Source of the DNA: Myxococcota bacterium
GTDB lineage: Bacteria; Myxococcota_A; JAVEVO01
NCBI GenBank assembly: GCA_034005005.1
Contig: JAVEVO010000010.1
Location: forward strand, 467 to 64,466
DNA: 64,000 nucleotides
Reading direction: 5' to 3'
Both the position numbers and the translations under genes were made by a program. How positions within the stretch are numbered: position 1 is the first letter of the stretch; each line of letters starts with the position of its first letter. Positions 8,616 to 57,610 of this stretch are shown in pieces. The notes beneath the pieces were generated by a model that had not been told where the DNA came from, did not search any database, and saw only the letters and a program-made list of their open reading frames with translations.

Positions 8616-9190
8616 GCCTCTCCTCGTGCGGCGATCCACCCGTGCCGGCGACTCCAGGAGGACTCGGATGGTCTCGATGGAGGCGGGTGATGCGCCGGGG
8701 CGGTGTTCCGGCTCGCCGGCAGCCACCGGGGTCACGCGCACTCCGAGCGTGTGTGCCTCAGAGCTGCCCTCGGGAGCACCCCGGAGTTGCTCGAACTCTA
8801 CCATGGCCCGGGCCTGGTCGTCATCGTCGTGGACCGGCCAGGTCGGCACCGTGCACCTTCCTGCCTGCGGCCCCCGTGATGTCTCCAGCAACTTTGCCGC
8901 TGGACCGTGGCGTCGCGCTCGACCCCGTGGCCATCGAGGCCTCGGGCCGCGTCGTGTCGAATCCTTCGAATGGCCGGCGACCCGCCCTGCACAGTTTCGT
9001 GCGGATCCCCCTCTCCTCTGTTGGCCCCCCAACTCCCCCCAGGCACCCCGTAGAACCCCCAGGGACCCGGTCGTTGGCAAGCACAACGTGCTGATTTCCT
9101 TTGTTTCTCGACTACCTATGATCCATTCCGTTCGCGCTTAAAATCCTCCGCCGCAAGGCATGCGGGTTCGAGTCCCGCTCCGGGTACCGC
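6242..9190. repeat. Copy 2 of the ~2.95-kb direct duplication
   Basis: See copy 1. Contains a diverged 24-nt patch (9111-9134 vs 2867-2890) and scattered indels in the last 250 bp. Confidence 0.9.
9162..9188 (+). other. tRNA-like T-arm/acceptor fragment, second copy (identical to 2919-2945)
   Basis: Same 27-nt sequence. Repeat identity ends at 9190. Confidence 0.4.
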
Positions 9191-9341
9191 CGACCTCTAC
9201 ACGGGCGCCACACGCGAGGGCAGACGTCCTGGCGTCGGCCCGCTATACTCTCCCTCCGGCCCCGACGGCTCGCGGGCCCCTGAGCGGGCTCGCGAGTAGT
9301 TCGAACGTCAGGGAAGAGTGTTCTCGTCCAGGAGGAAGGTC

Positions 9342-11420: not shown

Positions 11421-11872
11421 CGCCGGGGGAGCGCCAAGCCGCTCGCGACCAGACCCCGAACGGGTCGGCGTCACGACACAGACCTCGCAGCAACGCTCGG
11501 TGAGGCTCCGCGATCTCCGGGGCCAACGCCCCTTCCTCCTCCTCTCCGGATGGCTGCCGGTCGGACCCGTCGCCAGACCAGGCGGTTCGATCCCTTCAGT
11601 CCAGCAGCCAGGAGGCGTCGGTCCCGCCTCCGACACCCCCTCACATTTCTGAGGGCCTCCCCGTCCTGGAGGCTGCTGCGTCCCGGTGTCCTCTCGCCGC
11701 GAGATCCCCGATCCCTGGCCAGAATCGGGCACATCTCACCCCGCCTCGGCGCTCCTCGTCCGGTGTGGTGGGCGTTGGCCCGGGAGATGCAATCCCCCTC
11801 GCTGCCCGGGCTGCCGGCAGGCTGGCATCCGCGTTGCCGCCGGGCGGCAGCCGCAGGCCAGGGAGGTTGGCG

Positions 11873-44306: not shown

Positions 44307-45638
44307 TCAGGGATCGCGGTGGGGTGGTCCGTGGGGGACGGGCGAGCCGATCCAGAGCCTCTCCCGCACGCCGTCTGTCTGCAGCAAGGCCGGCCGGTCC
44401 GCGGGCGGCGCCGCGGCCGCGGCCCGGGTCAGACCCAGCAGCGCGGCCTTGTCAGCCTCGTCGGCCTCGTTCGGGACGAGGGGTCGGCCCATCAGTCTGG
44501 TGGCCAGCTCGGCCGGTGGCTCCGCCGGGGGGCCCGCGGGCAGGTCGGTGCGGCGGGGATCGAGGATCAGGTGCCGTTCCCAGGGGGAGACGTTGCGCCG
44601 GTACAGGAAGCTCAGCAGGTCCCCGACCACGGGCTGCTCCCGGGTCCATCGGGCCGCATGGGCCCAGAGGAGCTGCCCCGGCGCGTGGTGGTGCAGGGTG
44701 GCGACCAGCTCCGGGAGCACCCGGGCCAGGTCGTAGGCCACCACGAGGCCTGGGCCCGCGCTCGGTGCGAAGGGCGCGCAGGGGACGCCGAGCAGCTCGG
44801 CCGCGGCCAGGGCCAGGGTCTCGTTCTCGCGGTCGGGGAAGCTCAGGACCCGGGGAGGTGCCAGGGCGAGGGCCGACAGCACCCCCGCCAGGCGTGCCAG
44901 GGCCTGCCGGCAGCGGGTCTCGTCGTCCTCGCTCCGCTCCCAGCGGCCGCGGTCGCTGCCCGGGGTCCCGGGCGGCGCGGGCAGCAGCAGCAGCCCGCCG
45001 CTGATGACGAAGTGCCAGCCCCGCAGATCGTCGGCGTCCAGGGGGGTCACGGCGGCCACCACCTCGGCCCGGGCGAGCATCCCGGCCAGCCGGGCCTGGA
45101 GGAACCGCTCGGTGGCGTCCGCGGGGGGGCCGAGCGTGGTCAAGGCCTCCCGGGCAAATCTCAACTCACCCGCGAGCAGCAGGTTGAACGCGAGCAGGTA
45201 GCGGGTGAGGAAGGCGCCCGGCGTCCGGGAGGTGGACTCCTGGAGCAGCCGGGCTGCTTCCCGGTGCAGCCCCATGGTCTCCAGCGCGGCCACCTGCTCT
45301 TCGAGGAGCGCGAGCCGCTCCGGTTCCCGGGCTCGCGCCCGCGCCAGGGCCGCGACCGCCAGGCCCGGCAGCTCGGCTTCGAGGGCCGCCCGGGCGAGCT
45401 CGAGCAGCGGCGCGGGATCGTCGGGCCGGCTCGCGGCGAGCTGGCACCGTTCGGCGAGGGGCGGGGAATGGGTCTCGGCCGTCACGCGGGCCAGCAGCTC
45501 CAGCGCATCCGTCCACTGGCCGGGCTCGCGCAGGCCGTCCGGAGGATCGAGCAAGGGCAGCAGCAGCTCGAAGGCCCCCAGCGCGTCCTCGTAGCCGAGG
45601 GCCTCCTCGGCTTGCTCACGGACTTCCTCGAAGCGCAT
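44307..45638 (-). CDS. Hypothetical protein (444 aa) immediately downstream of the DUF4157 gene; candidate immunity or partner
   Basis: ATG at 45638 with GGAGAGA RBS. Helical repeat-like N-terminal half. Confidence 0.6.
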   Translation of the reverse strand: MRFEEVREQAEEALGYEDALGAFELLLPLLDPPDGLREPGQWTDALELLARVTAETHSPPLAERCQLAASRPDDPAPLLELARAALEAELPGLAVAALARARAREPERLALLEEQVAALETMGLHREAARLLQESTSRTPGAFLTRYLLAFNLLLAGELRFAREALTTLGPPADATERFLQARLAGMLARAEVVAAVTPLDADDLRGWHFVISGGLLLLPAPPGTPGSDRGRWERSEDDETRCRQALARLAGVLSALALAPPRVLSFPDRENETLALAAAELLGVPCAPFAPSAGPGLVVAYDLARVLPELVATLHHHAPGQLLWAHAARWTREQPVVGDLLSFLYRRNVSPWERHLILDPRRTDLPAGPPAEPPAELATRLMGRPLVPNEADEADKAALLGLTRAAAAAPPADRPALLQTDGVRERLWIGSPVPHGPPHRDP

Positions 45639-45706: not shown

Positions 45707-46954
45707 CTAGATGAAGATCCCCTCGGCCTCGTCGCAGGGGAAGTGCTGCACCGCGGGCCAGGCCGCGGCGACGGGGAGGTCCTCCTGGGTGTGGACCTTG
45801 CCCAGGTCGTAGGTGGTGCGGGTCTTGGAGATGTCGTCCACCTTGCTCGTGCTGTCGTAGACCGTGGCCTGCTCCCCCGCCTTCTTGGGGTTGGGGATCT
45901 GCTTCGGGCTCGCGCCGCGATAGCCCATGCCGATGGTCTGCTTGTGGTCGACCACCACCTCGTAGGAGCCGTAGAACTGGAGCATCTTGTCGGGGGTGGC
46001 GGCGTTCTTCTGGAAGCGCACGGGCAGCTCGCCGGTGGTGCCGGCCCGGGTCCCCTCGCTCCAGGTGACGATCGCCCCGCTCGCCTGGCTGAGCTGCTTG
46101 GCCAGGCCGGCCTTCGCCTTGTTGTCCGTGGAGGTCTTCAGCGCGTCCTTGGCCTCGACCAGCTTGGCGTAGAGCTGCTTGAAGGAGAGGACCGTCTTCT
46201 CGCGAGCGGCGGTGATCTTGGTCGCAGCGGCCTGGCGGGTCTTGAGATAGGCGTCGTAGGAGGTGAACTTCGTGCTGAGCCCGGGCGCCGGGACGAACGC
46301 ACCGTCGGGCGCGTAGCCCGTGGTCAGCCGCTCCTGCAGCTTGGCGTCCGTGACCTCGGGACCATGGCGTTTCAGGCTGTGCCCCTGGTCGCGGTCCTCG
46401 AGGGCCGTGGCGTCGACCTTGTCCTGGGCCTCGTCGCGCTGGATGGCCACGCCCGGTGAGCCTCCCCCTTGGATCATCCCGTCGAGCAGGGGCACGGCCG
46501 AGCGTCCGGCGGCGACCGTGCGGGCGACCTCCTCGGCGGCTTGCTCGTACTCGTCGCCGGCCTGGCCCACGCCGCCGGAGGGGATCAGCCCGTGCCGTTG
46601 CTGGATGACGTGCGCGGCTTCGTGGGCCGCCAGCGCGAGGGTGGGAGGCTTGGCGAAGAAGATCTCCTCGCCACAGGCCACCGCGTTGGCCCCTTGCGCG
46701 GTCGCGGCCGCGGCCGCGTCCGGCCCCTGGTGGACCCGGATCCGACTGACGTCGTGCTGCCCGAACGCCGGCGCGATGCGGGAGAGGAAGGGCAGCGGCC
46801 CACCCGCGTCCTGGGGCTGCAAGGCGTCGAGCTGATCCTCGTAAGGCAGGTCGCCCAGGCGGCGCCGGGACTGGGCCCCCTTGGTCTTGCCGGAGGCGGT
46901 GTCCGAGGCGTCGGGGAGCGCGGAAGACTGCGGACGCTGGCTCTGCTCTTGCAC
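45707..46954 (-). CDS. DUF4157-domain protein (HExxH: AHEAAHVIQQ) with a Lys-rich lower-GC C-terminal domain of unknown function; putative secreted toxin/effector
   Basis: GTG start with AGGAGAGG RBS. DUF4157-like block GQHDVSRIRVHQGPDA...AQGANAVACGEEIFF...AHEAAHVIQQ. C-terminal 250 aa has ~62-64% GC. Confidence 0.8.
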   Translation of the reverse strand: MQEQSQRPQSSALPDASDTASGKTKGAQSRRRLGDLPYEDQLDALQPQDAGGPLPFLSRIAPAFGQHDVSRIRVHQGPDAAAAATAQGANAVACGEEIFFAKPPTLALAAHEAAHVIQQRHGLIPSGGVGQAGDEYEQAAEEVARTVAAGRSAVPLLDGMIQGGGSPGVAIQRDEAQDKVDATALEDRDQGHSLKRHGPEVTDAKLQERLTTGYAPDGAFVPAPGLSTKFTSYDAYLKTRQAAATKITAAREKTVLSFKQLYAKLVEAKDALKTSTDNKAKAGLAKQLSQASGAIVTWSEGTRAGTTGELPVRFQKNAATPDKMLQFYGSYEVVVDHKQTIGMGYRGASPKQIPNPKKAGEQATVYDSTSKVDDISKTRTTYDLGKVHTQEDLPVAAAWPAVQHFPCDEAEGIFI

Positions 46955-47071
46955 GGGCCTCTCCTGGCCGGGAAGTCACTGAAAAAAATAGAGAGCAGCG
47001 TCGAGGAAGTCCAGGGAATGTGCGGGAGAGTCCCGTCGGTCGGGGGGGAGCGCCGTCGCCGCGGGGGTGTG

Positions 47072-47986
47072 CTACCCGAGGGACGCAACGAAGGCCGTGA
47101 TCCGCCGGGCGACCTCCGCGGGCTGCTCCATGGGGAGGAGGTGGCCCGTGCCCGGCACCTCCTCCACCCGGGCCGCGGGCAGGGTCCGGGCGAGCCGGCG
47201 CGCCGCCTCCCGGGTGAAGGCGGTGGAGGTCTCGCCGCGCAGGACCAGCAGGGGGAGCGAGAGGCGTCTCAGGGGGCCCCAGAGGTCGTCGGGAGTCGTG
47301 GCGAAGACCTGGGCCTCCCACTCCCGGGGGTAGGCCAGCCGCAGCACGCCCTCGGGCGTCTCCACCAGGCCGTGGTGGAGGTAGTCGTCCAGGCAGCGCG
47401 GGTCCCAGGACGCGAACAGCGGTCGCTGCCCGTAGTGGGCGCGGGCCTCGGCCCGGGAAGGCCAGGTCTCCCGGCGGCGCCGTGCACCCTGCACCAGGGG
47501 CAGCCGGCCGCCCCACCCGAGCCGCTTCAGGGCTCGCCAGAGGCGGGCTCGCCAGCCCGTGAAGATCACCGGGTCGATCAGCACCAGGGCACGGAAGAGC
47601 CCCGGGTCGGCGACCGCGGCGAGCAGGCTGAGCACCGCACCGAGGCTGTGGCCGACGCCGATCCCGGGTTGGGGATCGCCAGGTCGCAGCGCCTGGGCGA
47701 GGTCCGTGGCCAGCTCGTCCCAGCCCCGGAGCCGGGCGGGGTCGCTGCCGGGCCAGAGTGGGCGGGACGGCCAGGCGACCACCCGCCAGCTCCGGGCCAG
47801 CTCCTCGGCCAGGCGCGTGTAGGTCCCCGGGGGGAAGCCGTTGGCGTGGGCGAGGTGGAGCCGCAGACCGGTGCTGCCCCACTGCAAGGGGGGCGAGGCG
47901 ATCGGGCCCGGTGCGCTCGCTGGTTGGCCCGTTGCGTCCACGAGTCGGGTGGTCTTTGGTTCTTTGATACTGACGTCCTGCGTCAT
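47072..47986 (-). CDS. Alpha/beta-fold hydrolase
   Basis: GHSLG nucleophile elbow. ATGA start/stop overlap with the upstream gene. Confidence 0.85.
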   Translation of the reverse strand: MTQDVSIKEPKTTRLVDATGQPASAPGPIASPPLQWGSTGLRLHLAHANGFPPGTYTRLAEELARSWRVVAWPSRPLWPGSDPARLRGWDELATDLAQALRPGDPQPGIGVGHSLGAVLSLLAAVADPGLFRALVLIDPVIFTGWRARLWRALKRLGWGGRLPLVQGARRRRETWPSRAEARAHYGQRPLFASWDPRCLDDYLHHGLVETPEGVLRLAYPREWEAQVFATTPDDLWGPLRRLSLPLLVLRGETSTAFTREAARRLARTLPAARVEEVPGTGHLLPMEQPAEVARRITAFVASLG

Positions 47987-48789
47987 CTCCCGGGCTCCCG
48001 GGAGCCGGCGTCGGCCTGCCGGTGAGCCTCGTGGAGCTCCGCGCCCGGCCCTGGCCGGCGCAGGTCGTCGCCCTGGAGGACCGCGGGAACCTCCCCGGCG
48101 TGCAGCCCCCAGCCCACCAGGGCCTCGGCCAGGAGGGAGGCGTTCGTCGAGCGGTACCGGGCCTGGAGCAGCCGGAGGCCGAGCAGCCCGGCGAGAGCCA
48201 GCAGCCCATCGCCCAGCTTGGCGCCCAGGCGCTCCAGGGGACGAGGCTCCTCCCGGTCCGCACCAGTGATGATCGCCGGGCGCGCGATCCGCGTCTCCAG
48301 ACCGCTCGTCCGCAGTTCCTCCTCGAGCTGCCAGCGCGCCTGGAGGTAGGCCAGGCGAGAGTCCGGGCCGACGCCCAGGGCCGAGAGGAGGACGATCCGG
48401 GGAGCGAGTCCCGCCCGCCGGACGGCCTGCAGCAGGAGGTGGCTCAAGCCGTAGTCCACGGCCTGGTAGGACTCGGCGGCCGGCAGGCGGCCCGCCCGGC
48501 GGGCCTGGCGGGCCCTGGCCTTGGTCGTACCCAGCAGCAGGAAGACCAGGGTCGGCTGGGCCCGGACCAGGGCCGCGGCCAGGGCCTCCTCCTCCCAGGG
48601 GGTGGTGTCCACCCGGACGTGCGTGCCGAGGCTGTCGAAGCGGCTCGACCACTCGGTCAGCCGGGGCGAGTCGGGCCGGACATGGGCCCAGGTGACCACC
48701 CCGCGGGCCGCCAGGCTCTGGACCACCGCTCGCCCGACGTAGCCGGTGGCCCCTGCCACCCACGCCACCTGCGTCGCCACCTCGGCCAT
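47983..48789 (-). CDS. NmrA-like/atypical SDR NAD(P)-binding protein
   Basis: AGGAGG RBS. GATGYVGRAVV Rossmann motif. Confidence 0.8.
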   Translation of the reverse strand: MAEVATQVAWVAGATGYVGRAVVQSLAARGVVTWAHVRPDSPRLTEWSSRFDSLGTHVRVDTTPWEEEALAAALVRAQPTLVFLLLGTTKARARQARRAGRLPAAESYQAVDYGLSHLLLQAVRRAGLAPRIVLLSALGVGPDSRLAYLQARWQLEEELRTSGLETRIARPAIITGADREEPRPLERLGAKLGDGLLALAGLLGLRLLQARYRSTNASLLAEALVGWGLHAGEVPAVLQGDDLRRPGPGAELHEAHRQADAGSREPGR

Positions 48790-49042
48790 GATCGACCTCC
48801 TGCCTCCGATCGTCCCCCAACATCTTCGGCACGAACCTGCGGAAGACAACCGGCGCGGGGAGGTGATCGCCGGGAGGAGGCGCGTGTCCTCGATGCGTGG
48901 TCGTCGCCCTCCCGGTCGTTCGACGATCTTGACAAGCGGGAGGGGTGGCGCTTTCCTCTGGAGACTCGAACGAGATCGCTGCTGCGTCCCGACAGGGGGG
49001 TTGGCCTGGGGGGAGCGGCGGCTGGCCGTCGGAGGGAAGAGG

Positions 49043-50656
49043 ATGAATCGCTACGGTCTGCTTGCGAGCCTCTCGGGGCTGTTGCTGCTCTTCGCCGCTG
49101 TCGCCGGCTGCGACGATGGCGGTGGTGGTGGGACGGGAGAGGGCGAAGGAGAGGGCGAAGGAGAGGGCGAAGGAGAGGGCGAGGGCGAAGGTTCGGAGGG
49201 CGAGGGCGAAGGTTCGGAGGGCGAGGGCGAAGGTTCGGAGGGCGAGGGCGAAGGTTCGGAGGGCGAGGGCGAAGGGGCCGAGGGCGAGGGCGAGGGTTCG
49301 GAGGGCGAGGGCGAAGGGGCCGAGGGCGAGGGCGAGGGTTCGGAGGGCGAGGGCGAAGGGGCCGAGGGCGAGGGCGAGGGTGAAGGGGAGTGGACGCTGC
49401 TCGGGTCCGCCGAGTGGGAGGGAGACTGGATCGTCCTCACCCCCGACGAGGGCAACCTGGCCGGCGCAGCCTGGCACGCCGTCCCCCTGACCCTCGAGCG
49501 GGATCTGGTCGCCGAGTTCAAGGTGCACCTCGGCACCGACGATGCAGCCGAGGAAGGAGCCGACGGGCTGGTCGTGGTACTCGCCACCGAGGCGGTCGAG
49601 GCCGCGATCGGCGAGGGACTGGGCTACCAGGGGATCCTTCCCTCGGTCGCGGTGGAGCTGGACACCTTCCCCAACGACGGCGAGCACCTCGGCGACGATC
49701 AGGGGGATCCCCTCCTCGATCACCTCGCCGTCGACGTCGACGGCAGCGTCAACCACACCGACGGCGGACTGCCCCTGGTCGAGGTCGGCGAGGTCGAGGA
49801 CGGGCAGGAGCACACCCTGAAGATCGAGTGGCTGGCCGCAGCCCAGACCCTGAAGGTCTGGCTCGACGGGGGCGCGGAGCCCGACCTCACCTGGACCGAG
49901 GACATCGCGGGCACCTACCTCGCGGGGGCCTCCGTGATCCGGCTCGGCCTGACCGCTTCCACGGGTGCGTTCAGCAACCGTCATGCGTTCTTGCCCGTCC
50001 GCATCTCCCAGGGCTCGAGCGGTGAATGGGTGCTGGTCGGCTCGGCGGTCGAAGAGGGGGCGCGGCTCGTCCTGACCCCGGACCAGGGAAATCAGGCCGG
50101 TGCGGCCTGGCGCAAATCGCCGCTCGATCTCGCGGTCGACTTCTCGCTCCAGGCCCAGGTCTACCTCGGCAGCAAGGACGACGACGGCGCGGACGGGATC
50201 GTCTTCGCCCTGGCCACGGAGGAGGCGACGGCCGAGGTCGGCGAGGGCCTCGGCTTCCAGGGCATCACCCCCTCCTTCGGCATCGAGATCGACACCTACC
50301 CCAACGATGGCGACCACCTGGGCAGCGACATGGCCGACCCCCTGGCCGATCACCTCGCGTGGGTGGTGGACGGCAGCGTGGACCACCACGCGCAGCCCGA
50401 GGGCACCCTCGTCGAGGTGGCCAACCTCGAGGACGGCGGGGAGCACCTGCTGGAGATCGATTGGCTCGCGGCGACCCACACGCTCGTGGTGAACCTCGAC
50501 GCCTCGGCCCAGCCGCTCCTGGTGATCGTGGAGGATATCGCGACGACGCGCTTCGGCGGGGTCGGCAAGGTGCGCTGGGGCTTCACTGGCTCGACCGGCG
50601 ACGCGAGCAACCTGCAGTACGTCGTGCCGCTGGAGATCCCGGCCGCGGCGCAGTGA
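49043..50656 (+). CDS. Lipoprotein: (GEGEG[SA]E)n linker followed by two L-type (legume-like) lectin domains
   Basis: GGAGGGAAGAGG RBS. Lipobox VAGC. ADGLVVVLAT, VAVELDTFPND, DHLAVDVDGSV, LTASTG...H blocks repeated twice. Confidence 0.85.
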   Translation: MNRYGLLASLSGLLLLFAAVAGCDDGGGGGTGEGEGEGEGEGEGEGEGEGSEGEGEGSEGEGEGSEGEGEGSEGEGEGAEGEGEGSEGEGEGAEGEGEGSEGEGEGAEGEGEGEGEWTLLGSAEWEGDWIVLTPDEGNLAGAAWHAVPLTLERDLVAEFKVHLGTDDAAEEGADGLVVVLATEAVEAAIGEGLGYQGILPSVAVELDTFPNDGEHLGDDQGDPLLDHLAVDVDGSVNHTDGGLPLVEVGEVEDGQEHTLKIEWLAAAQTLKVWLDGGAEPDLTWTEDIAGTYLAGASVIRLGLTASTGAFSNRHAFLPVRISQGSSGEWVLVGSAVEEGARLVLTPDQGNQAGAAWRKSPLDLAVDFSLQAQVYLGSKDDDGADGIVFALATEEATAEVGEGLGFQGITPSFGIEIDTYPNDGDHLGSDMADPLADHLAWVVDGSVDHHAQPEGTLVEVANLEDGGEHLLEIDWLAATHTLVVNLDASAQPLLVIVEDIATTRFGGVGKVRWGFTGSTGDASNLQYVVPLEIPAAAQ

Positions 50657-50698
50657 GGTCGCGGCCCTCCCGGTTCAGCGCGTCGGCGACTCGCCTTC

Positions 50699-50902
50699 CT
50701 ACGAGACGCTAGTCTGAAGGTACTTGGATAGCTGGTACTTCTGGGCTACTGAGCGCCGCTCCTCGGGCGGCAGGGATGCGAGGTAGGCGCGGAACCCCGG
50801 GCACCAGCCCGCGTGCCAGCGCCAGAGCCGGCCGAGCAGGGAGCGGGGGTTGCGGTCGAAGCGCGCCCGCATCGGGCAGGTCGCACACTGGGGTTCGGGC
50901 AT
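50699..50902 (-). CDS. Small Cys-containing protein (67 aa), hypothetical
   Basis: High GC3. CxxC plus WC. ...SLPPEERRSV. Confidence 0.45.
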   Translation of the reverse strand: MPEPQCATCPMRARFDRNPRSLLGRLWRWHAGWCPGFRAYLASLPPEERRSVAQKYQLSKYLQTSVS

Positions 50903-51113
50903 GGTCTGCTCCTTGAAGCGGCCCGGGGTCCGGCTGCTCCCGCGAGGTCACGTCGGGTTGTAGCGAACGCCGTCCCTCCTTGTCCAGCCCGGGGAGGGGG
51001 GGCGCGCTCGTCTCGACCTGCGTGCCGGGCGATTGCTGTGCTGCAGATCGACCAGGAAGAGCACCGAGGTCGCCAGGCGCAGTGGCCGGCTCGACCTCGC
51101 GGAGGGGCGCCTC

Positions 51114-53378
51114 ATGGACGTACGGGAACCCTGTGACCGCTCCTCGCGTGCGCTGATCTGCGCGGGCTGTGGCGAGACGCTGGTGGGGCCGGTCACCGCG
51201 ACGCGACTCGACTGCCACCGCTGTGGCCGTCACCATGAGCTACCCCCGCGGGACGAACGGGCCGAGCTGGCCGCGGCCCGGGCTGCACGGGCGGGCCTGC
51301 GGGAGGAGGACCGGCTGGCCGGGCTGCTGGCGCAAGACGGTCAGGACCTGCCCACGCCGCCAGGGCTCGAGGACCTCGCCGGCACCGGCGTCCGGGCCGA
51401 CAACCACGCGGACGCCTTCGCGCGGTGGCAGCAGGCCCGGCTCCTGGTGGCCGAGGAGGGAGATCCGGCGGCCGCGGCCCGGCTCGCCTGGCTGTCCCGC
51501 ATCCTGCGCAGCTACTACTCCTACATCGACCATGACGAGCTGCGGGGCCGGGCCATCGTCGAGACCAGCCTGGATCTGTTGCCGGATCCGGTCGTCCGGC
51601 AGGTGCTGCGCTGTGCCCTCGCGCGGAGCGCGGCCAGCCGCGGGGACCTGGCTTGCGCGGAGGGCTGGCTGGCCGCGTGCGACCCGGATTCCCCCAGCCT
51701 GGACGCGGACACCCAGTATCGCCTGGCGCGGGCCTACCTGGCCACCCGGCAAGAGCGCTACCGCGAGGTCCTGCACCTGCTCGGGCGGCGGCTCGAGGAC
51801 GTCCCCCTCGCGGACACGGGCGATTTCCTGGCTGCGGTGCTGCGTGCCAACGCGCTGGAGCGCACGGGCCGGCTCGCCGAGGCCGCAGCCGGGCTCGCGC
51901 GGGTCATGGCCGGTGGCGGCGAGTCCAGCATCGCCCGGTGCGTCGCGTTCAATCCCGAGATCGATCCCTGTCCGCAGAGCCTCCCGCTGGCCCGGACGCT
52001 GCTGGCGAAGCGGCGGCGGCAGGATCGCTGGCAGTGGCTGGGCCGGGCCCTGGCACGACGCGGCGGTCACGTCTGGCTGATCGTGGGCTCGATCGAGGTC
52101 GCGCTGGGGCTGGTGGCGCTGGCCCTGGCCGCGCTGGCCCTGACCGTGGGAGGCCTCGAGTTCCTGTCTGCCGCCCCGCGCGGCGTGTTGGCCCTGGCCG
52201 GGCTGGTCCTGCTCCTCACGGGGCTCCCGTTGGGCGGCCTGGGCTTGCTCGCGCGCCATGGTGCGAAGCTGGAGCGCCGGCTGCGGCGGGAGGGCCGCCC
52301 GGCCAGCGCCCGGGTGATCAAGGCCTTCGCGACGGGGCGGCGAGCCGGCGGCCGTCCCGAGCTGGCCTTCGTGCTCTCGGTCCAGGCCGCGGGCGAGGCT
52401 GCCTACCGCACCCTGCACCGGGACGTCGTGCCCGTGGACGGGCTCGGACCGCTGGCCGGCGCCGTGCTGCCAGTCCGCGTCGACCCCACGGACCCGGGCA
52501 CGCTGACCGTGGAGTGGGAGGGGGCCCGGCCCGCGCCCGCTGGCCGCCGCGCGGACGCCCACGACCCCGAGCCGCCCCCGGACCTCGCCGCGGTGCTCGG
52601 CCAGCGCAAGGCCTTCGGCGCCTCGTTCGGTAGCGTATTGGCGGTGCTCGGGCCGCTGCTCGGCATCTTCGCCTTCGGGAACATGAGCACGTGCATGGGC
52701 TTCGAGGACGAGGCCCTCCGGCGGCTGCGGGCTTGCCCCGGGGCGGTCGAGCTGCTCGGCGCCCCCGTGGCGCGGGCTCGCCTCGGCCTGTCCTGCGGCT
52801 CGGCCGAGACTGGCGGTGGCCGGGGCAACGCGAGCTGGATGCTGCCCGTGCAGGGCAGCAAGCAGCGTGGCAGCTACAAGGTGGTCATGGAGGATCGCGG
52901 GAGCGGCTGGACCCTGCTCGAAGGGTATCTGAGCGTCGGAGAGGTCGAGCTCGACGTGGTCCAGTGCACGCTGGCCGCGAGCGGGCAGGGTGTGGCTACG
53001 CTCCGCAAGCTGTCCGGCGAGGTCGTCAGCGCGCTGGGATCCGCCCCTGTTCCCCCGGGCACCCCGTGCACGGTCGAGCTCGGCCCGGGGGGCGGCCCCT
53101 TCGGCTGTCGCGTGCAGGTCCGCTGTGGTGGCCAGCTCCTCTACGGTGGGGAGCACCTCGGGTTCGTGAAGTGTCGCCTGCAGCCCCGCCCGGACGGCCC
53201 TCCCGCGATCGTCGCCCAGGACCCCGAGGGGACGGCCACCAGCGGCGACCCCATCCTGGACTTCCAGGAGGCCCGTGGCGAGGTCCTGATCTCGGACCAG
53301 GGCGCGGCTGGCCTCTGGGCGCTCACCATCCGCCTGCCCCTGCCGCCGTCCGTGCCGGCCGAGGAGGCGGCGCCTTGA
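51114..53378 (+). CDS. Hypothetical protein: N-terminal double zinc ribbon (CAGC...CHRC), helical-repeat region, two TM helices, C-terminal domain
   Basis: GGAGGGG RBS. 754 aa. Confidence 0.7.
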   Translation: MDVREPCDRSSRALICAGCGETLVGPVTATRLDCHRCGRHHELPPRDERAELAAARAARAGLREEDRLAGLLAQDGQDLPTPPGLEDLAGTGVRADNHADAFARWQQARLLVAEEGDPAAAARLAWLSRILRSYYSYIDHDELRGRAIVETSLDLLPDPVVRQVLRCALARSAASRGDLACAEGWLAACDPDSPSLDADTQYRLARAYLATRQERYREVLHLLGRRLEDVPLADTGDFLAAVLRANALERTGRLAEAAAGLARVMAGGGESSIARCVAFNPEIDPCPQSLPLARTLLAKRRRQDRWQWLGRALARRGGHVWLIVGSIEVALGLVALALAALALTVGGLEFLSAAPRGVLALAGLVLLLTGLPLGGLGLLARHGAKLERRLRREGRPASARVIKAFATGRRAGGRPELAFVLSVQAAGEAAYRTLHRDVVPVDGLGPLAGAVLPVRVDPTDPGTLTVEWEGARPAPAGRRADAHDPEPPPDLAAVLGQRKAFGASFGSVLAVLGPLLGIFAFGNMSTCMGFEDEALRRLRACPGAVELLGAPVARARLGLSCGSAETGGGRGNASWMLPVQGSKQRGSYKVVMEDRGSGWTLLEGYLSVGEVELDVVQCTLAASGQGVATLRKLSGEVVSALGSAPVPPGTPCTVELGPGGGPFGCRVQVRCGGQLLYGGEHLGFVKCRLQPRPDGPPAIVAQDPEGTATSGDPILDFQEARGEVLISDQGAAGLWALTIRLPLPPSVPAEEAAP

Positions 53379-53450
53379 GCGACTCGCCGGCAGCCCCCGG
53401 GCCGAGCCGGTCGGCGAGGGGAGGGAGCCGTCCCGGCAGCGCTGCCGTCG

Positions 53451-54728
53451 CTACAGCCGCAGCTCCGCCGCGCACTCCTCTCCCAGGGTCACGGTCGGGC
53501 GCCGACGGAAATCCGCCGGCATCTCGCGGAAGGTGATCAGCCCCGACACGGGACAGACGAAGCTGCAGATCATGCAGCTCAGACACTTGTCCTCCAGCAG
53601 GCGGGGGCGCCGGGCCTCCTGATCCCACTCCAGGGCCTGACCGCCGGCATCGTGACAGCAGATGTAGCACTGGCCACAGCCGACGCAGCGGTCGAGGTCG
53701 TACTGGGCGATCCCCTGGCGCGCGAGGTCGAAGTCGCTGGTGTCGCAGATGTGGGGCAGGGCCCGGCCCACCAGGTCGGCCGCGCGCGCGACGCCCTTGT
53801 GGGCCAGGTAGTCGCTCAGCCCCTCGATCAGGTCTTCGACCATCCGGTAGCCGTAGCGGACGATGCCGGTGGTCACCTGGACGGTGCTCGCGCCCACCAG
53901 CAGGTACTCGAGCGCGTCGATCCAGGTCTCGATGCCGCCGATGCCCGAGAGGGGCAGGCCGAGGTCCGGGCACTTGGCGAGGTCGGTGATGAAGCGCAGG
54001 CCGACGGGCTTGATCGCGGGGCCCGAGTACCCGCTGATGGCGCCCTTGCCGAAGACGTTGAGCGCCGGCACCCAGTCGTCGAGGCCGATCTCGGCCAGAC
54101 CCCGCACCGTGTTGATCGCCGAGATGGCGTCGGCGCCCCCGCGCTTGGCGTAGAGTGCGGCCTCGGTCATGTCGGTGATGTTGGGGGTCATCTTCGCGAT
54201 CAGCGGCAGGGAGGTGGCCTGGCGCACGGTCGTGGTGAACTTCTCGATGAGCTCGAACGAGCGTCCGACCTTGTAGCCCGCACCTTCGACCGTCATGTGC
54301 GGACAGGAGAAGTTGAGCTCCAGCAGGTCGGCGCCGTTGTCCTCGCAGGCCTTGGCCAGCTTGGCCCACTCGTCGTTGGAGTAGCCCATGATGCTGGCCG
54401 CGACCACCCGGTCGGGCCAGTGCTTCTTGAGGTAGCGGATGTCGAGCAGGTTGTCCCGCAAGGGCCGGTCGGTGGTCTGCTCGACGTTCTGCAGGCCCAT
54501 CAGCCGCTTGGCCCCGTGGTGGTGGCCGTGCATGCGGGGGGAGGGGTGGATCAGGCTCCAGCCCTCCCAGTTGAGGGTCTTGTAGGCGACTCCGCCCCAA
54601 CCGGCATCGAAGGCCCGTCCGATCATCTCGGCGCAGTTGGAGACCGGGGACGAGGAGAGCAGGAAGGGGTTGGGGAACCGGACCCCGCAGAAATCGACTG
54701 AAAGATCGATGGGTTGGCTCATTGTCAC
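53451..54728 (-). CDS. preA: NAD-dependent dihydropyrimidine dehydrogenase subunit PreA (DHOD-like TIM barrel plus 2x[4Fe-4S])
   Basis: GGGGGGAG RBS. C-terminal CxxCxxCxxxCP motifs. Confidence 0.9.
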   Translation of the reverse strand: MTMSQPIDLSVDFCGVRFPNPFLLSSSPVSNCAEMIGRAFDAGWGGVAYKTLNWEGWSLIHPSPRMHGHHHGAKRLMGLQNVEQTTDRPLRDNLLDIRYLKKHWPDRVVAASIMGYSNDEWAKLAKACEDNGADLLELNFSCPHMTVEGAGYKVGRSFELIEKFTTTVRQATSLPLIAKMTPNITDMTEAALYAKRGGADAISAINTVRGLAEIGLDDWVPALNVFGKGAISGYSGPAIKPVGLRFITDLAKCPDLGLPLSGIGGIETWIDALEYLLVGASTVQVTTGIVRYGYRMVEDLIEGLSDYLAHKGVARAADLVGRALPHICDTSDFDLARQGIAQYDLDRCVGCGQCYICCHDAGGQALEWDQEARRPRLLEDKCLSCMICSFVCPVSGLITFREMPADFRRRPTVTLGEECAAELRL

Positions 54729-56062
54729 TCCCCCCGTGGTCCGAGCTGCGCGGCGATGGCCTGCGCAGCCCGCTTGCCATCTCGCACGGCCTGGACCACC
54801 AGCCCGGGACCGCCGACCAGGTCACCCCCAGCCCACAGGTTGGCCACGCTCGTCCGGCCGGTCTCGGGGGCGGCGATCACCAGGCCTCCCCGGGTGCGCT
54901 CCAGCCCGGGGATCGGTCCCGGTGAGTCGGGAGCCGGCTGGTTGCCGATGGCCTCGATGACCGCCGTCGCCGGGAGCAGCCAGCGCGTGTCGGGGAGCTC
55001 CTCGGGGCGGCGGCGGCCCGAGGCGTCCGGCGCGCCGAGGCGGGTGCGCACCAGCTCCACCCCCGTGATCCCTCCGGCCTCGTCCGTGCGGTAGCCCACC
55101 GGCTGGGTGAGCAGCAGGAAGTGGACGCCCGCCTCCTGCGCCGCGATCCGCTCGGCCCGCTCCGCAGGCATCTGCAGGTAGGAGCGGCGGTAGACGAGGT
55201 AGACGTCCTGCGCGCCGAGCCGCAGGGCCGACTCGGCGCAGTCCATGGCCACCGAGCCGCCGCCGACCACGACCACGTTGCGGCCGGCGATCTCGTCGCG
55301 CAGGGCCTCGGCCCCGCCGTCGCGCAGCCGCTCCAGGAACGCGACCGCACCGTGCAGACCCTGCTGGACCCCCGCCCCGAGGCCGAGGGTGGCCGCTTGC
55401 CAGAGACCGGTGGCGAGGTAGATCGCGGCGAATCCCTGGTTCGCGAGATCCTGGATCCCCGCTATATTGCATACTTTGGTACCACAGCGAAAGACGACGC
55501 CGAGGTCGCGGATCGTCTGCAGCTCGCGCTCCAGGAAGGGGCGATCGAAGCGGTAGTCCGGCACGCCGTACCGGATGACGCCGCCGGGCTCGGCCCGGGC
55601 CTCGAAGACCGTGACCGCGAAGCCCTGTCGGGCGAGCATCGCCGCGCAGGTCAGCCCGGCAGGCCCGGCACCGACGATGGCCACCCGCTCCGGCCGGGGC
55701 GGACCCGCGGCGACCAACCGCAGCCCTCGCTGCCAGCCCTGCTCCACCAGGAAGCGCTGGACCGCGCCGATGCGGATCGGTCGGTCGATGCTGGTCGCGG
55801 CGCAGCCGGCCTCGCACAGCCGGGCGGTCGGGCAGAGCACGCCGCACGCCCCGCCGAGGGGGTTGTTCTGCTGGATCGTGCGGATCGCGCCGGTCAGGTT
55901 GCGCAGGCGCAGCTTGCGCAGGAACGCCCCGGGATCGGTCCCTGCCGGGCAGGCGGCCGAGCAGGGTGGATCGTGGCAGAGCAGGCAGCGGTCGGCCTCG
56001 GCCACGGCCAGGCTCTGGTCGATGCCCCGCGGCATGGTCGCGGCCTCGTCTCGTCGGTCCAT
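54725..56062 (-). CDS. preT: Dihydropyrimidine dehydrogenase subunit PreT (GltD-like FAD/NAD oxidoreductase)
   Basis: GGGAGGGG RBS. N-terminal Fe-S Cys cluster. IVGAGPAG dinucleotide motif. ATGA overlap with preA. Confidence 0.9.
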   Translation of the reverse strand: MDRRDEAATMPRGIDQSLAVAEADRCLLCHDPPCSAACPAGTDPGAFLRKLRLRNLTGAIRTIQQNNPLGGACGVLCPTARLCEAGCAATSIDRPIRIGAVQRFLVEQGWQRGLRLVAAGPPRPERVAIVGAGPAGLTCAAMLARQGFAVTVFEARAEPGGVIRYGVPDYRFDRPFLERELQTIRDLGVVFRCGTKVCNIAGIQDLANQGFAAIYLATGLWQAATLGLGAGVQQGLHGAVAFLERLRDGGAEALRDEIAGRNVVVVGGGSVAMDCAESALRLGAQDVYLVYRRSYLQMPAERAERIAAQEAGVHFLLLTQPVGYRTDEAGGITGVELVRTRLGAPDASGRRRPEELPDTRWLLPATAVIEAIGNQPAPDSPGPIPGLERTRGGLVIAAPETGRTSVANLWAGGDLVGGPGLVVQAVRDGKRAAQAIAAQLGPRGE

Positions 56063-56398
56063 CGGCCCCTCCCACCGACCCGAGCAGCGACGGGTTGCCC
56101 GCGCCGTCCGGGGAAGATCGTCATCACGTTCGAGACAGCAGCATAGCCCGGAGCGGCTCCCGAGGTCCAGGGGGGGCTGACGGGACGTGGGCTGCCGCGC
56201 GGCGTCGCCCGTGGCGCGGTCGGGTTGGCCCGTTGGCCGTTCGGTGCGTCGGAGAGAGGCCCCGGGCGGGGGTGCGCACTCCGCGGCTGGAACCGTCGTC
56301 GTCGGCAGCCTACAATCGGACCAGGGTGCGCCTTCGGGCCCGGACCAACGGTGGTCCAGGCCGGGGAGGAGGGGGCGCCTGGTTTCGGAGAGGACGGA

Positions 56399-57610
56399 AT
56401 GCCACACGATCTCGCCCCGGGCGCTCGCGGCGACACCACCCAGGGGCAGCGGAGCGGGGGGCTGCAGAACTCCACCAACCTGGCCCGGCTGCGCGCCAAG
56501 CTCGCGGGGCTCCCCTACGAAGAGCAGCAGAACCAGCTCCAGGGCGACGGTGAGCTCCAGTCGGGGGCCCCGGACGGCGAGAGCTCCGGGCAGGGAGCGC
56601 CCCTGGCCCCGCCCGACGTGACGGAACCGGGCGACGGGCTGGCGCGCGTCCACGGCCGCACCCTCGGGCCCTTCGCCGGGGATTTCAACGGGCGGAGTCG
56701 GGCCTCGGTCATCGAGGAGCGGCTGTTGACGGTCGACGCGGGGGCGCTGGCCCGCGCGGAGCTCGTGATCCAGGGCAGCACCTACCGGATCCAGGTCGGC
56801 GAGGTGCAGTTCCAGATCACCCACGCCGATCTCGGGCTCAACGCCACCGCCTTCCCCGAGACGGCGAACCGCTACCGGGCCGTGGCCTCGCACTTCCTGA
56901 CCCAGCTCGGCGCCCCCGTGCCCGAGATCTCCCTCGCGGACGAGCGGGGCGAGGCCGCGGCCAAGTCGGCCCAGCTCGAGTTCGAGCGCGGCGTGGCGCA
57001 GCACGGCGAGGGCAATAGCTGGGAGACCGCCGGCTCGAACAAGGGCCCGCTGGTCAACGAGTACAAGCAAGCCAACAACGCCGGGGGCAACAACACGAGC
57101 TGGGAGTGGTGCGGGATGTTCGTCGGCTACAACTACATGAAGGCCGGCATCCGCACGGAGATCCTCCAGAACCTGGTCTTCTGGTCCGCGCCGCGGCTGG
57201 AGCGCTTCTTCGAGTCGGGGGGCTACGTCGCGACCTCCCAGGCCCAGGCCGGCGACTGGTGGCAGTCCCACCAGACCCTCGACGTCGGCGGACTCACCGG
57301 GGAGACCCGCAAGGCCCAGCTCGACGCGTTCCAGCCACGCGCCGGCGACGTCGCGCTCTTCGGCACCGACCGGGAGCACGTCGGCATCGTCGTCTCCTAC
57401 GACTCGGCCACGGGCAACCTCGAGCTCATGGAAGGCAACCTCGGCAACCGGGTCCAGGCCACCGCCTACGGCACGGGCAGCGACGAGGTCTCGTTCCTCG
57501 GCCGCTTCAACGACTCCGACTACCAGCCGAACGGCGAGGTCGACGCGGACCTCACCAGCGCGGCCCAGCCCAACGTCACCCATGGAGCGGGAGGCGGCAG
57601 CACGCACTGA
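56399..57610 (+). CDS. CHAP-domain (Cys/His amidohydrolase-peptidase) protein with a disordered N-terminal leader; putative cell-wall-targeting effector
   Basis: GGAGAGG RBS. CHAP Cys in SWEWCGMFVGYNY and His in REHVGIVVSYD. Confidence 0.8.
   Translation: MPHDLAPGARGDTTQGQRSGGLQNSTNLARLRAKLAGLPYEEQQNQLQGDGELQSGAPDGESSGQGAPLAPPDVTEPGDGLARVHGRTLGPFAGDFNGRSRASVIEERLLTVDAGALARAELVIQGSTYRIQVGEVQFQITHADLGLNATAFPETANRYRAVASHFLTQLGAPVPEISLADERGEAAAKSAQLEFERGVAQHGEGNSWETAGSNKGPLVNEYKQANNAGGNNTSWEWCGMFVGYNYMKAGIRTEILQNLVFWSAPRLERFFESGGYVATSQAQAGDWWQSHQTLDVGGLTGETRKAQLDAFQPRAGDVALFGTDREHVGIVVSYDSATGNLELMEGNLGNRVQATAYGTGSDEVSFLGRFNDSDYQPNGEVDADLTSAAQPNVTHGAGGGSTH

Follow-up and report, generated by a model that had tools for sequence, protein, structure and literature searches.

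Two genes in a stretch of Myxococcota DNA encode proteins with different catalytic domains and similar N-terminal leaders. We asked whether this likeness reflects a common signal and what such a signal might serve. The stretch analysed, hereafter the window, is 64 kb long, and an earlier note on it had suggested a shared export or loading signal, possibly for a contractile injection or other non-Sec system. The features concerned are the following.

45707-46954, minus strand: DUF4157/eCIS_core toxin-like gene, 415 aa, with disordered leader, HExxH domain and C-terminal domain
46877-46954, minus strand: pre-motif segment, residues 1-26, polar and disordered, MQEQSQRPQSSALPDASDTASGKTKG
46808-46876, minus strand: leader copy 1, residues 27-49 of the DUF4157 protein, AQSRRRLGDLPYEDQLDALQPQD
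46589-46789, minus strand: DUF4157 (eCIS_core, HExxH metallopeptidase-like) domain, residues 56-122
45710-46462, minus strand: presumed toxin domain, C-terminal, residues about 165-415
44307-45638, minus strand: 443-aa gene downstream of the DUF4157 toxin gene, candidate cognate immunity or partner gene
56399-57610, plus strand: CHAP/NlpC-P60-like putative peptidoglycan hydrolase gene, 403 aa, with leader and without DUF4157
56483-56551, plus strand: leader copy 2, residues 29-51 of the CHAP-like protein, ARLRAKLAGLPYEEQQNQLQGDG
56936-57583, plus strand: papain-like catalytic domain (CHAP/NlpC-P60 superfamily), residues about 180-395

The two leaders in the window are copies of one motif

We scanned the window in six frames with a regular expression and found exactly two matches to LPYE[DE]Q, at 46832-46849 (minus strand) and 56510-56527 (plus strand), each about 40 residues into its gene, one in the DUF4157/eCIS_core gene and one in the CHAP/NlpC-P60-like gene. 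The count expected by chance from six-frame residue frequencies was 0.0003, and none of 300 residue shuffles yielded any match. An independent HMM, built only from the leaders of 18 DUF4157 proteins of other organisms, was then run on the 818 six-frame ORFs of the window. The CHAP-like protein ranked first (12.9 bits) and the DUF4157 protein second (12.7 bits; i-E 0.004-0.005 for the two), while no other ORF exceeded 2.3 bits and no reversed sequence 3.2 bits. The scan and the window-excluded HMM agree with the earlier note that the motif is common to both proteins; its residue numbers (31-47 and 28-48) were also right, and its DNA coordinates, off by one base, become 46814-46864 and 56480-56542.

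Scored with the 23-position leader HMM, copy 1 reached 25.8 bits and copy 2 25.2 bits. With the leader-only profile A2, of which copy 1 is itself a member, the values against 1.84 billion (1.84e9) protein representatives were 47.4 bits (E=1.3e-7) and 38.3 bits (E=9.4e-5), respectively. Copy 1 has AQSR in place of the family's VQLK, and copy 2 has Gly in place of the terminal Pro; each leader is a copy that has diverged from the 23-residue consensus. Their DNA differs at synonymous sites, indicating that the likeness is maintained at the protein level and ruling out recent duplication as its source.

The proteins that carry the leaders

The 415-aa protein matched Pfam eCIS_core/DUF4157 at residues 56-122 (E=2.4e-15, 56.9 bits, cut-off 22), with HEAAH at residues 111-115, and an identical gene call was found in JGI metagenomes (P0001). 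In the AF2 prediction, residues 1-32 had pLDDT<50, residues 38-44 formed a short helix, residues 50-160 were mostly above 90, and the C-terminal domain was of moderate confidence. The first 35 residues had a Kyte-Doolittle mean of -1.40, and we found no hydrophobic h-region in the N-terminus. The presumed toxin domain had no sequence match in Pfam, NCBIfam, PADLOC or PDB, and Foldseek against PDB gave no informative match; this domain is kept in P0002-P0004 (41-44% identity over 86-88% of the query). In P0002, whose N-terminus is different, a partner gene lies directly downstream of the toxin gene as in the window, and its product is 37% identical (E=2e-58) to the 443-aa protein. The latter's gene call is supported by JGI data, a Pfam search with it returned no match, and this conserved pairing makes it a candidate for the toxin's cognate immunity or partner protein.

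The 403-aa protein has a near-identical JGI counterpart of equal length with a precomputed CHAP hit (P0059). Its own matches to NLPC_P60 (E=0.0078, 16.6 bits, cut-off 23) and TIGR02594 (E=4e-8) lay below the cut-offs. Its catalytic domain is 53-61% identical to that of PG_binding_1/3-bearing proteins passing the CHAP model (P0060; Pfam CHAP 29.1 bits, cut-off 26), and Cys238 and His327 are invariant in the catalytic-domain alignment A4. AF2 gave pLDDT 70-90 over this domain and <50 over most of residues 1-176 (1-28, 35-105 and further segments), and no hydrophobic h-region was found in the N-terminus. In CHAP homologs without the leader, PG_binding domains stand at its place.

The motif recurs on effector-type proteins of Myxococcota

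Profile A2 matched 106 protein clusters at E<=1e-3, nearly all at residues about 20-70. The leader HMM was specific, with 25 matches of at least 10 bits among 12,969 ORFs and none in the reversed control (maximum 7.4 bits). The consensus is V-Q-L-K-x-x-L-R-G-x-[SD]-[FY]-x-x-[QG]-x-A-x-L-x-P, usually followed by VQxKGG. The earlier wording, a basic stretch and then LPYE[DE]Q, had picked out a genuine motif and under-described the unit, which spans 23 residues (VQLKxxLRGxS[FY]xxQxAxLxP). Over 80 instances, the start position is 31 (5-95%: 25-38), and the most conserved columns are L19 (100%), P21 (96%), Q2 and L7 (92% each), [FY]12 (91%) and G9 (90%). From [SD][FY] to Pro the chain probably folds into a capped helix of two turns, exposing the aromatic side chain and the invariant Leu. 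VQ[LR][KR] and VQxKG elements often flank the motif, and some proteins contain two copies (P0006, P0008, P0066, P0073).

In the carriers, the motif is preceded by a polar, disordered stretch of about 30 residues with many Ser, Ala, Thr, Pro, Gly and Gln. What follows it, usually after VQxKGG, is either DUF4157 with a variable toxin domain behind it or, with no DUF4157 between, a toxin or hydrolase domain. The first 35 residues are hydrophilic (median KD -0.75), residues 6-21 are slightly positive (median +1), and an aromatic residue within the first eight is found in just 14 of 78 carriers. The 15-residue hydropathy maximum over the first 70 residues did not exceed 1.1 in the 80 instances, so a Sec-type hydrophobic region is absent. 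Together with the low pLDDT and the fixed position, this bears out the disordered, non-Sec N-terminus described earlier.

DUF4157 was present in 47 of 95 new carriers, with polymorphic toxin C-termini (ART, EndoU, NleD-like). The other 48, which include three repeat-protein false positives and several short fragments and leave about 40, had other or unassigned domains, e.g. CHAP, VanY and ADP-ribosyltransferases. Domains recorded among carriers were VanY, ADPrib_exo_Tox, XopAI-like, SpvB-like, DUF922, ART, Peptidase_M91 and EndoU; the leader is modular, as its presence on two different catalytic domains had suggested. Occurrence in cytoplasmic housekeeping proteins, named in the earlier note as evidence against a signal, was not observed: no housekeeping family was found among the carriers, which look like effectors or toxins. 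All named carriers came from Myxococcota MAGs, several of which hold more than one (CALHXW01: L004, L006, L008; JAXLYZ01: L005, L033, L059; JACKFA01: L016, L044), and Bradymonadales MAGs contribute L009, L012, L061 and P0139. We found no model of the motif in Pfam or NCBIfam and no report of a conserved loading sequence in the eCIS literature; the earlier note had not recognised it either, and we found no previous description. The tag is real, modular, N-terminal and non-Sec, and it sits on effector-type proteins; very probably it is a genuine effector-specific delivery tag. One tag would then stand at a fixed distance from the start on more than 100 toxin clusters in predatory myxobacteria.

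Genomic context of the carrier genes

We searched the window for CIS (including structural), T6SS and other secretion genes and found none. Around about 30 carrier genes examined, phmmer with Afp1-16 and precomputed Pfam annotation of neighbours revealed no sheath, tube or baseplate genes within 10 kb, and no recurrent gene family adjoined the carriers. The same phmmer search detected such genes in 27 of 80 metagenome AAA+ loci, which served as a control; the motif was absent from all 80 (maximum 5.6 bits), including the 27 with eCIS structural genes, and from IMG/VR contigs. The shared N-terminal leader stands, while the suggested link to contractile injection found no support in these neighbourhoods.

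Afp15-like AAA+ genes (E 1e-60 to 1e-69) directly adjoin DUF4157 genes in seven Myxococcota loci, and none of the seven DUF4157 proteins has the motif. Standalone AAA+/DUF4157 cassettes were also found, with no CIS genes nearby. In other lineages, DUF4157 cargo beside eCIS genes has common N-terminal motifs of its own, which also start h-Q-[RL]-[KR]. Related DUF4157 genes occur in Haliangiales MAGs; published scoring was eCIS-negative for Haliangium (0/2 genomes) and Sorangium (0/19) (PMC8213781 supplement). Within Myxococcota, eCIS clusters are present and expressed (PMC11937823; PMC8213781 supplement).

A probable loading or export tag, and the proposed machine

Most likely, the motif is a signal for loading or export by an injection machine whose genes lie elsewhere. 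Among domains that mark eCIS, DUF4157 ranks first (odds ratio 2614; PMC8213781). In AlgoCIS, cargo enters the tube lumen only with a disordered NTD, after which DUF4157 may or may not follow, and with the AAA+ protein Alg15; DUF4157 itself is dispensable, and such NTDs are alike within one system and not between systems (10.64898/2026.05.27.728243). By analogy, the machine may be an eCIS; this is the leading reading, at slightly below even odds. The complete reading, an eCIS mechanism plus a delivery tag particular to Myxococcota toxins and effectors of which the two window leaders are diverged copies, would be about an even bet. A delivery tag on effectors is well supported; since every carrier gene examined is an orphan, its assignment to an eCIS is only the leading candidate. 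By analogy with AlgoCIS Cgo1/Cgo2, PVC and Afp cargo, an Afp15/Pvc15/Alg15-type AAA+ ATPase would recognise the free unstructured N-terminus and the motif in the producer cytoplasm. The particle would then carry both window proteins, CHAP hydrolase and DUF4157 toxin, into the cells of prey or competitors, and the 443-aa protein, encoded downstream of the toxin, might protect the producer.

The main rival, which we consider unlikely, is that the tag serves as an export signal or chaperone-binding region for another non-Sec route, the leading candidate being the 'needleless' type-3-like apparatus (T3SS*) which, with a Kil/Tad pilus, serves contact-dependent prey killing and lysis in predatory Myxococcota. 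T3SS effectors usually have a secretion signal and then a chaperone-binding region, and the carriers have a Ser/Thr/Ala/Pro-rich disordered stretch of about 30 residues and then a conserved element at residues about 30-55. Like many T3SS effector genes, theirs are dispersed as orphans. Cell-wall hydrolases (CHAP, VanY) are among the cargo, together with families characteristic of T3SS effectors (XopAI-like, SpvB-like, ExoS-type ADP-ribosyltransferases, NleD-like Peptidase_M91), although these toxin domains are generic polymorphic-toxin modules. T3SS* is needed for prey lysis by M. xanthus and its effectors are not yet identified (PMC12075869), but no carrier is on record from the group in which T3SS* was defined (M. 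xanthus and other Myxococcia). Both T3SS* and Tad systems occur in Bradymonadia (PMC11509652), and Bradymonadales MAGs carry the motif; however, no T3SS genes were seen near carriers, and half of the carriers have DUF4157, for which statistics and experiments show a link to CIS cargo, not to T3SS.

Less likely again is a function outside transport, for example as a short linear motif on which a chaperone or inhibitor docks to hold the toxin in an inactive state, or as a propeptide that proteases, perhaps of the DUF4157 type and acting in cis or in trans, remove at the VQ-[KR] sites on either side. The VQ[LR][KR] and VQxKG elements bracketing the motif, the proteins with two copies and the HExxH peptidase signature of DUF4157 favour it, but DUF4157 is absent from about 40 carrier clusters. 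AAA+/DUF4157 cassettes that stand alone would also fit; however, no conserved partner gene is linked to the carriers, a strictly fixed N-terminal distance is more typical of terminus-dependent threading or export than of internal docking, and the equivalent AlgoCIS region is needed for loading while DUF4157 is not.

T6SS typically have orphan-encoded effectors whose N-termini bear lineage-specific markers, and DUF4157 has been grouped with toxins of both eCIS and T6SS (PMC12210884). A T6SS marker like MIX, FIX or RIX that sends orphan effectors to the machine is nevertheless very improbable, since searches limited to Afp8 and Afp10 queries found no VgrG- or PAAR-like genes near carriers and Bradymonadia are reported without T6SS (PMC11509652), yet Bradymonadales MAGs hold several motif proteins. 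Chance likeness of two compositionally biased, disordered N-termini is already refuted by the hexamer expectation and the shuffles, by the window-independent HMM selecting exactly these two ORFs, and by the 106 significant matches with near-invariant columns at a fixed position.

Comparison with known systems

The preferred eCIS loading tag resembles the NTD of AlgoCIS Cgo1/Cgo2 (Alg15) and the PVC/Afp 'signal peptides' (Pvc15, Afp15) in being a disordered, hydrophilic, non-Sec N-terminus that precedes a variable effector domain and, where present, DUF4157, common to different cargo of one organism and differing between lineages. Unlike them, it has a sharp 23-residue consensus at a fixed position in more than 100 clusters, whereas the literature on those systems gives no conserved sequence. 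Known eCIS cargo genes almost always lie within 10 genes of the core operon (PMC11297309), whereas the tag carrier genes examined are orphans with no CIS operon beside them. The tag carriers share the hydrophilic, slightly positive character reported for eCIS signals; the aromatic residue reported in the first eight positions of such signals is absent from most of them.

The 415-aa protein is a bona fide PVC-metallopeptidase/DUF4157 polymorphic toxin (PF13699, eCIS_core) with a variable C-terminus and a linked downstream partner gene. The PF13699 definition does not cover the tag, which precedes DUF4157, can occur apart from it and is found on about 40 DUF4157-free clusters as well, including that of the window CHAP protein.

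With T3SS signal and chaperone-binding regions the tag shares a polar, Ser/Thr-rich, disordered extreme N-terminus, position dependence and scattered genes; it differs in its association with DUF4157, which is not a T3SS feature, and in its sharp consensus, since classical T3SS signals are not known to have one. Compared with the T6SS markers MIX, FIX and RIX, it is far shorter, at 23 residues versus about 100 or more, lies in a disordered region, has no T6SS linkage that we could find and occurs in a class reported without T6SS. Like them, it is N-terminal and common to otherwise unrelated effectors, many of them orphan-encoded, and N-terminal markers of this sort are useful for effector discovery.

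Two window genes with a common N-terminal leader

A six-frame regular-expression scan of the window found exactly two matches to LPYE[DE]Q, where six-frame residue frequencies predict 0.0003, and none of 300 shuffles contained a match. Chance similarity of the two leaders was excluded. The matches and the genes that contain them are:

46832-46849 (-), first LPYE[DE]Q match
45707-46954 (-), gene containing the first match, 415-aa DUF4157/eCIS_core toxin-like protein, leader at residues 27-49
56510-56527 (+), second LPYE[DE]Q match
56399-57610 (+), gene containing the second match (CHAP gene), 403-aa CHAP/NlpC-P60-like putative hydrolase, leader at residues 29-51

The earlier note had described a motif common to these two N-termini, and the scan confirmed it; the residue numbers of the note were correct, but its DNA coordinates were off by one base.

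The product of 45707-46954 matched Pfam eCIS_core/DUF4157 (PF13699) at residues 56-122 (E=2.4e-15, 56.9 bits, cut-off 22) and contains HExxH as HEAAH at residues 111-115. JGI metagenomes hold an identical gene call. The CHAP gene product had no DUF4157 match in Pfam, gave nothing at E<=1 against the Pfam CHAP model, and fell below the curated thresholds of NLPC_P60 (16.6 bits, cut-off 23) and TIGR02594 (33.5 bits, cut-off 70.6). Among its homologs, P0059 has a precomputed PF05257 match on record, and P0060, which is 61% identical to the window protein, passes the CHAP model (29.1 bits, cut-off 26). The catalytic half of the window protein is 53-61% identical to CHAP-model-passing proteins with PG_binding_1/3 domains, and Cys238 (WCGMF) and His327 are invariant in the CHAP-domain alignment. 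On the basis of this identity and the two invariant residues, the product of 56399-57610 is predicted by homology to be a peptidoglycan hydrolase of the CHAP/NlpC-P60 superfamily.

Consensus, position and spread of the leader

Many homologs of the window DUF4157 protein showed a related N-terminal element. A 23-position HMM of the leader, built from 20 instances, gave 25 matches of at least 10 bits in 12,969 six-frame ORFs from 82 sources, while the reversed control gave none (maximum 7.4 bits). An exhaustive search of 1.84 billion representative proteins with a leader-only profile gave 106 matching proteins at E<=1e-3, in almost every case at residues ~20-70; three were repeat-protein false positives. 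A search with the same profile in a space of 5.8e9 sequences returned no matches, because its E-values were scaled to 5.8e9 sequences. The motif is thus recurrent and broader than the two-protein similarity originally seen, and no housekeeping families were seen among its carriers.

Across 80 instances, the motif started at residue 31 (5-95%: 25-38) with the consensus V75-Q92-L84-K72-x-x-L92-R58-G90-[MQLK]-[SDG]-[FY]91-[ADE]-x-[Q72/G27]-x-A71-[AM]-L100-[AST]-P96, in which the numbers are percentages. It is often followed by V-Q-x-K-G-G-G, and the ~30 residues ahead of it are enriched in Ser, Ala, Thr, Pro, Gly and Gln. None of the carriers shows a hydrophobic stretch of Sec type, the maximum 15-residue hydropathy in the family being <=1.1, and no Pfam or NCBIfam model describes the motif. 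Among the genome loci, and among the cluster members with a named source, nearly all are MAGs of Myxococcota (Kofleriaceae, Haliangiales, Nannocystaceae, Polyangia, Bradymonadales); the cluster-member listing gave uncultured MAG sources only. Several carriers occur per genome or MAG, with two in the window, at least two in OW818691.1 (9.29 Mb) and at least three in GCA_016931535.1 (Bradymonadales).

The window copies are divergent members of this family, with AQSR or ARLR in place of VQLK and, in the CHAP protein, Gly instead of Pro. When 818 ORFs were scored with an HMM trained without the window sequences, the two window proteins took the top two places (12.9 and 12.7 bits), with the next ORF at 2.3 bits. 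The DNA of the two copies differs at synonymous positions, indicating that conservation is selected at the protein level; a recent duplication of leader DNA was rejected on the same grounds. Both N-termini had pLDDT<50 in the AF2 models, which place a short helix across the [FY]xxQxxxL portion of the leader, and the mean KD hydropathy of the first 35 residues was -1.40 and -0.87. A Tat signal, hinted at by 'SRRRL' in gene 45707-46954, was rejected, as no hydrophobic stretch follows SRRRL and the family consensus is VQLK. Foldseek comparison of both AF2 models with the PDB gave nothing at E<=1e-3 (weak CHAP endolysin and helical-hairpin matches only), PDB sequence searches with the window proteins were empty, and PADLOC assigned the window proteins to no defence system.

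The window carriers lie ~9.5 kb apart. In MAG JACKFA01, two further carriers without DUF4157, L016:17502-19157 (+) and L044:13266-14489 (+), lie a few kb from DUF4157 carriers of the same MAG, mirroring the window spacing. In one of these two, the C-terminus is CHAP/NlpC-like as judged from motif inspection alone, with no Pfam match at E<=1; the other appears to be helical.

Cargo domains and modularity

DUF4157 was present in 47 of 95 new carriers and gave no match in the other 48, of which ~40 remain after removal of 3 false positives and several fragments. Most of these DUF4157-less carriers have no known domain; also among them are VanY, ExoS-type, XopAI-like and SpvB-like ADP-ribosyltransferases, and proteins with DUF922 or TPR. 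The C-termini of the DUF4157 carriers are polymorphic (ART, ADPrib_exo_Tox, Peptidase_M91, EndoU, PG_binding). The leader is modular, since CHAP homologs have PG_binding domains where it would be.

Modularity also shows in P0002: at 44% identity it is the nearest full-length homolog to the window toxin, but its N-terminus is a different one. The gene downstream of P0002 is 37% identical (E=2e-58) to a window gene just downstream of the DUF4157 toxin:

44307-45638 (-), 443-aa protein without a family match

This homologous downstream gene is kept beside P0002 despite the different N-terminus, so 44307-45638 (-) is a candidate immunity gene whose product would represent a new family.

Search for a linked machine

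Pfam analysis of ~32 window genes revealed no secretion-system or phage-tail genes, among them no sheath, tube, baseplate, PAAR, DUF4255 or AAA+ gene. The window is ordinary chromosomal DNA of myxobacterial type, with kinases, PEGA, MopE, lectin, adenine deaminase, PreA/PreT-like genes and an aquaporin. Other features seen in it are:

48746-50656, gene for a protein with two legume-lectin domains
49136-49381 (+), 12-nt and 21-nt tandem repeats in that gene, encoding a (GEGE)n/(GEGEGSE)n acidic linker
1-2611 (-) and 6216-9137 (-), large proteins (>870 and 974 aa) whose sole recognised domain feature is a 19-residue SEC-C motif near the N-terminus

We then compared all fetched loci with Afp1-16 from plasmid pADAP by phmmer. 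Within 10 kb of any of the 79 Myxococcota DUF4157 loci, this comparison revealed no gene for sheath, tube, baseplate, VgrG, PAAR or DUF4255; as a positive control, the same queries detected eCIS structural genes in 27 of 80 metagenome loci seeded with Afp15-like AAA+. Precomputed Pfam annotation of ten further contexts agreed, showing no such machine genes, and all-against-all clustering revealed no recurring neighbour families at carrier genes except Ser/Thr kinases. The leader motif was absent from the 80 AAA+-seeded loci, including the 27 with eCIS structural genes. The shared non-Sec leader on effectors proposed in the earlier note is right in kind, and the contractile injection system that it names as possible is a candidate machine; no CIS genes were found in the window or within 10 kb of the other carriers.

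In seven Myxococcota loci (L027, L040, L041, L050, L060, L063, L070), an Afp15/Pvc15-like AAA+ gene directly adjoins a DUF4157 gene, and the pair stands alone as a cassette. Their AAA+ proteins match pADAP Afp15 at E 1e-60 to 1e-69, and that of L063 is WHD-variant plus AAA in Pfam. The two cassettes scanned with Pfam, L027 and L060, are flanked by housekeeping genes (glmS, ccm). None of the seven has sheath, tube or baseplate genes within 10 kb, and their DUF4157 proteins lack the leader motif. AAA+ alone also occurs in many GC-rich metagenome loci.

Two degenerate DNA patterns for the leader gave no true matches on IMG/VR contigs; a single 15-bit match was rejected as out of frame within a 1298-aa gene. 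Two related IMG/VR contigs encode DUF4157 proteins with a GKVTLT-type motif at the N-terminus. On L084, an apparent genuine myophage, a 1259-aa ORF (9239-13015) lies in the head module, between portal/methyltransferase-XkdF protease genes and the major capsid gene. On L082, an 831-aa ORF (6959-9451) lies upstream of tail sheath and tape-measure genes. These DUF4157 proteins may be virion-packaged or ejected.

Possible roles of the leader

We consider it very probable that the leader is a genuine N-terminal tag, modular in nature and specific for effector/toxin proteins in Myxococcota. The constant spacing between it and a free, disordered N-terminus suggests that recognition or threading depends on that terminus. 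By analogy with known cargo, the most likely machine, held with a little under even confidence, would be an eCIS-type particle into which tagged proteins are loaded via an Afp15-like AAA+. The carrier genes are orphan, so that either eCIS cargo can lie far from its machine in this phylum, or the DUF4157 toxins take another route there.

The main rival, to which we assign a low probability, is that the tag belongs to the needleless T3SS*/Kil predation apparatus. This apparatus is needed for prey lysis and its effectors are not yet identified (PMC12075869), T3SS* has been found in Bradymonadia (PMC11509652), and T3SS*/Kil would be compatible with a polar N-terminus, orphan carrier genes and lytic/ART cargo. 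It is similarly doubtful, though conceivable, that the motif serves as the long-sought address on effectors which predatory Myxococcota send into prey via the Kil/Tad pilus and T3SS*, or via another undefined machine. If so, scanning with it would give contact-dependent predation by myxobacteria its first list of effectors, among them cell-wall hydrolases, ADP-ribosyltransferases, nucleases and numerous toxins of new fold, and DUF4157 would not be CIS-specific. A non-transport role of the tag, such as processing or chaperone docking, is possible but improbable. A T6SS is unlikely, because Bradymonadia are reported to lack T6SS (PMC11509652), yet Bradymonadales MAGs bear the motif.

CIS loading signals have so far been described as disordered and polar, without a consensus, which limits effector prediction and the engineering of these systems as protein-delivery tools. 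What is new here is a sharply defined consensus, the first for a probable signal of cargo loading or export: 23 residues, compact, at a fixed N-terminal position, in >100 protein clusters with or without DUF4157. If it is a true loading or export signal, it would be a marker by which sequence searches could uncover the effectors, mostly of uncharacterised toxin fold, of predatory Myxococcota, which are largely uncultured, as well as a minimal tag for loading heterologous cargo and a handle on the recognising component via peptide pull-down. Its uses would lie in effector discovery in predatory myxobacteria and in cargo engineering.

Comparison with known systems

Carriers differ from proteins with T6SS markers (MIX/FIX/RIX) in that VgrG/PAAR-like genes were not found near them and in that they occur in Bradymonadales MAGs. 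With T3SS effectors, the likeness seen is one of composition, in the N-terminus. We also compared them with the signal features of Danov et al. 2024, namely hydrophilicity over the first 35 residues, a slight positive charge between residues 6 and 21, and an aromatic residue in the first 8. Median hydropathy was -0.75 and median charge +1 (weak), and an aromatic residue was present in the first 8 residues of 14 of 78 carriers, neither window protein among them.

In other lineages, DUF4157 cargo beside real eCIS genes has its own shared N-terminal motifs, LQRKCACG...C..C or LQ+xxGNxAV, also starting with h-Q-[RL]-[KR]. Such motifs were seen in AAA+-seeded metagenome loci, most holding eCIS structural genes (L164, L149, L156 and L147; L099, L114, L125 and L129): tandem DUF4157 cargo genes in one eCIS locus share a Cys-rich LQRKCACG..C..C....LQR+, and other loci have LQ+xxGNxAVxRL. 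A further N-terminal type, 'PGK+TLT..L..VQR+', occurs in many Myxococcota proteins. Comparison of these N-termini suggests several classes of system-specific tags, most with an h-Q-[RL]-[KR] element.

Among eCIS marker domains, DUF4157 is the strongest (PMC8213781), and eCIS clusters are known in Myxococcus, Plesiocystis, Stigmatella and uncultured marine Myxococcota, being highly expressed in the latter (PMC8213781; PMC11937823). The eCIS operon of M. xanthus DK1622 encodes a DUF4157 protein, MXAN_4488. In AlgoCIS, the cargo proteins Cgo1 and Cgo2 each combine a disordered NTD with DUF4157 and a C-terminal domain; for loading into the tube lumen, the NTD and the AAA+ Alg15 are needed and DUF4157 is dispensable, and NTDs are alike within one system and unlike between systems (10.64898/2026.05.27.728243). 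Compared with PVC/Afp/AlgoCIS cargo, the sole defining feature that fails is location, within ~ten genes of an eCIS core operon, as no eCIS structural or AAA+ gene was found in the window or within 10 kb of the other carriers. Like that cargo, the window leaders are disordered, hydrophilic N-terminal stretches of ~50 residues without a Sec or Tat signal, and the leader is common to the carriers of one organism and missing where other-lineage AAA+ loci have other cargo motifs. The window architecture closely fits this picture.
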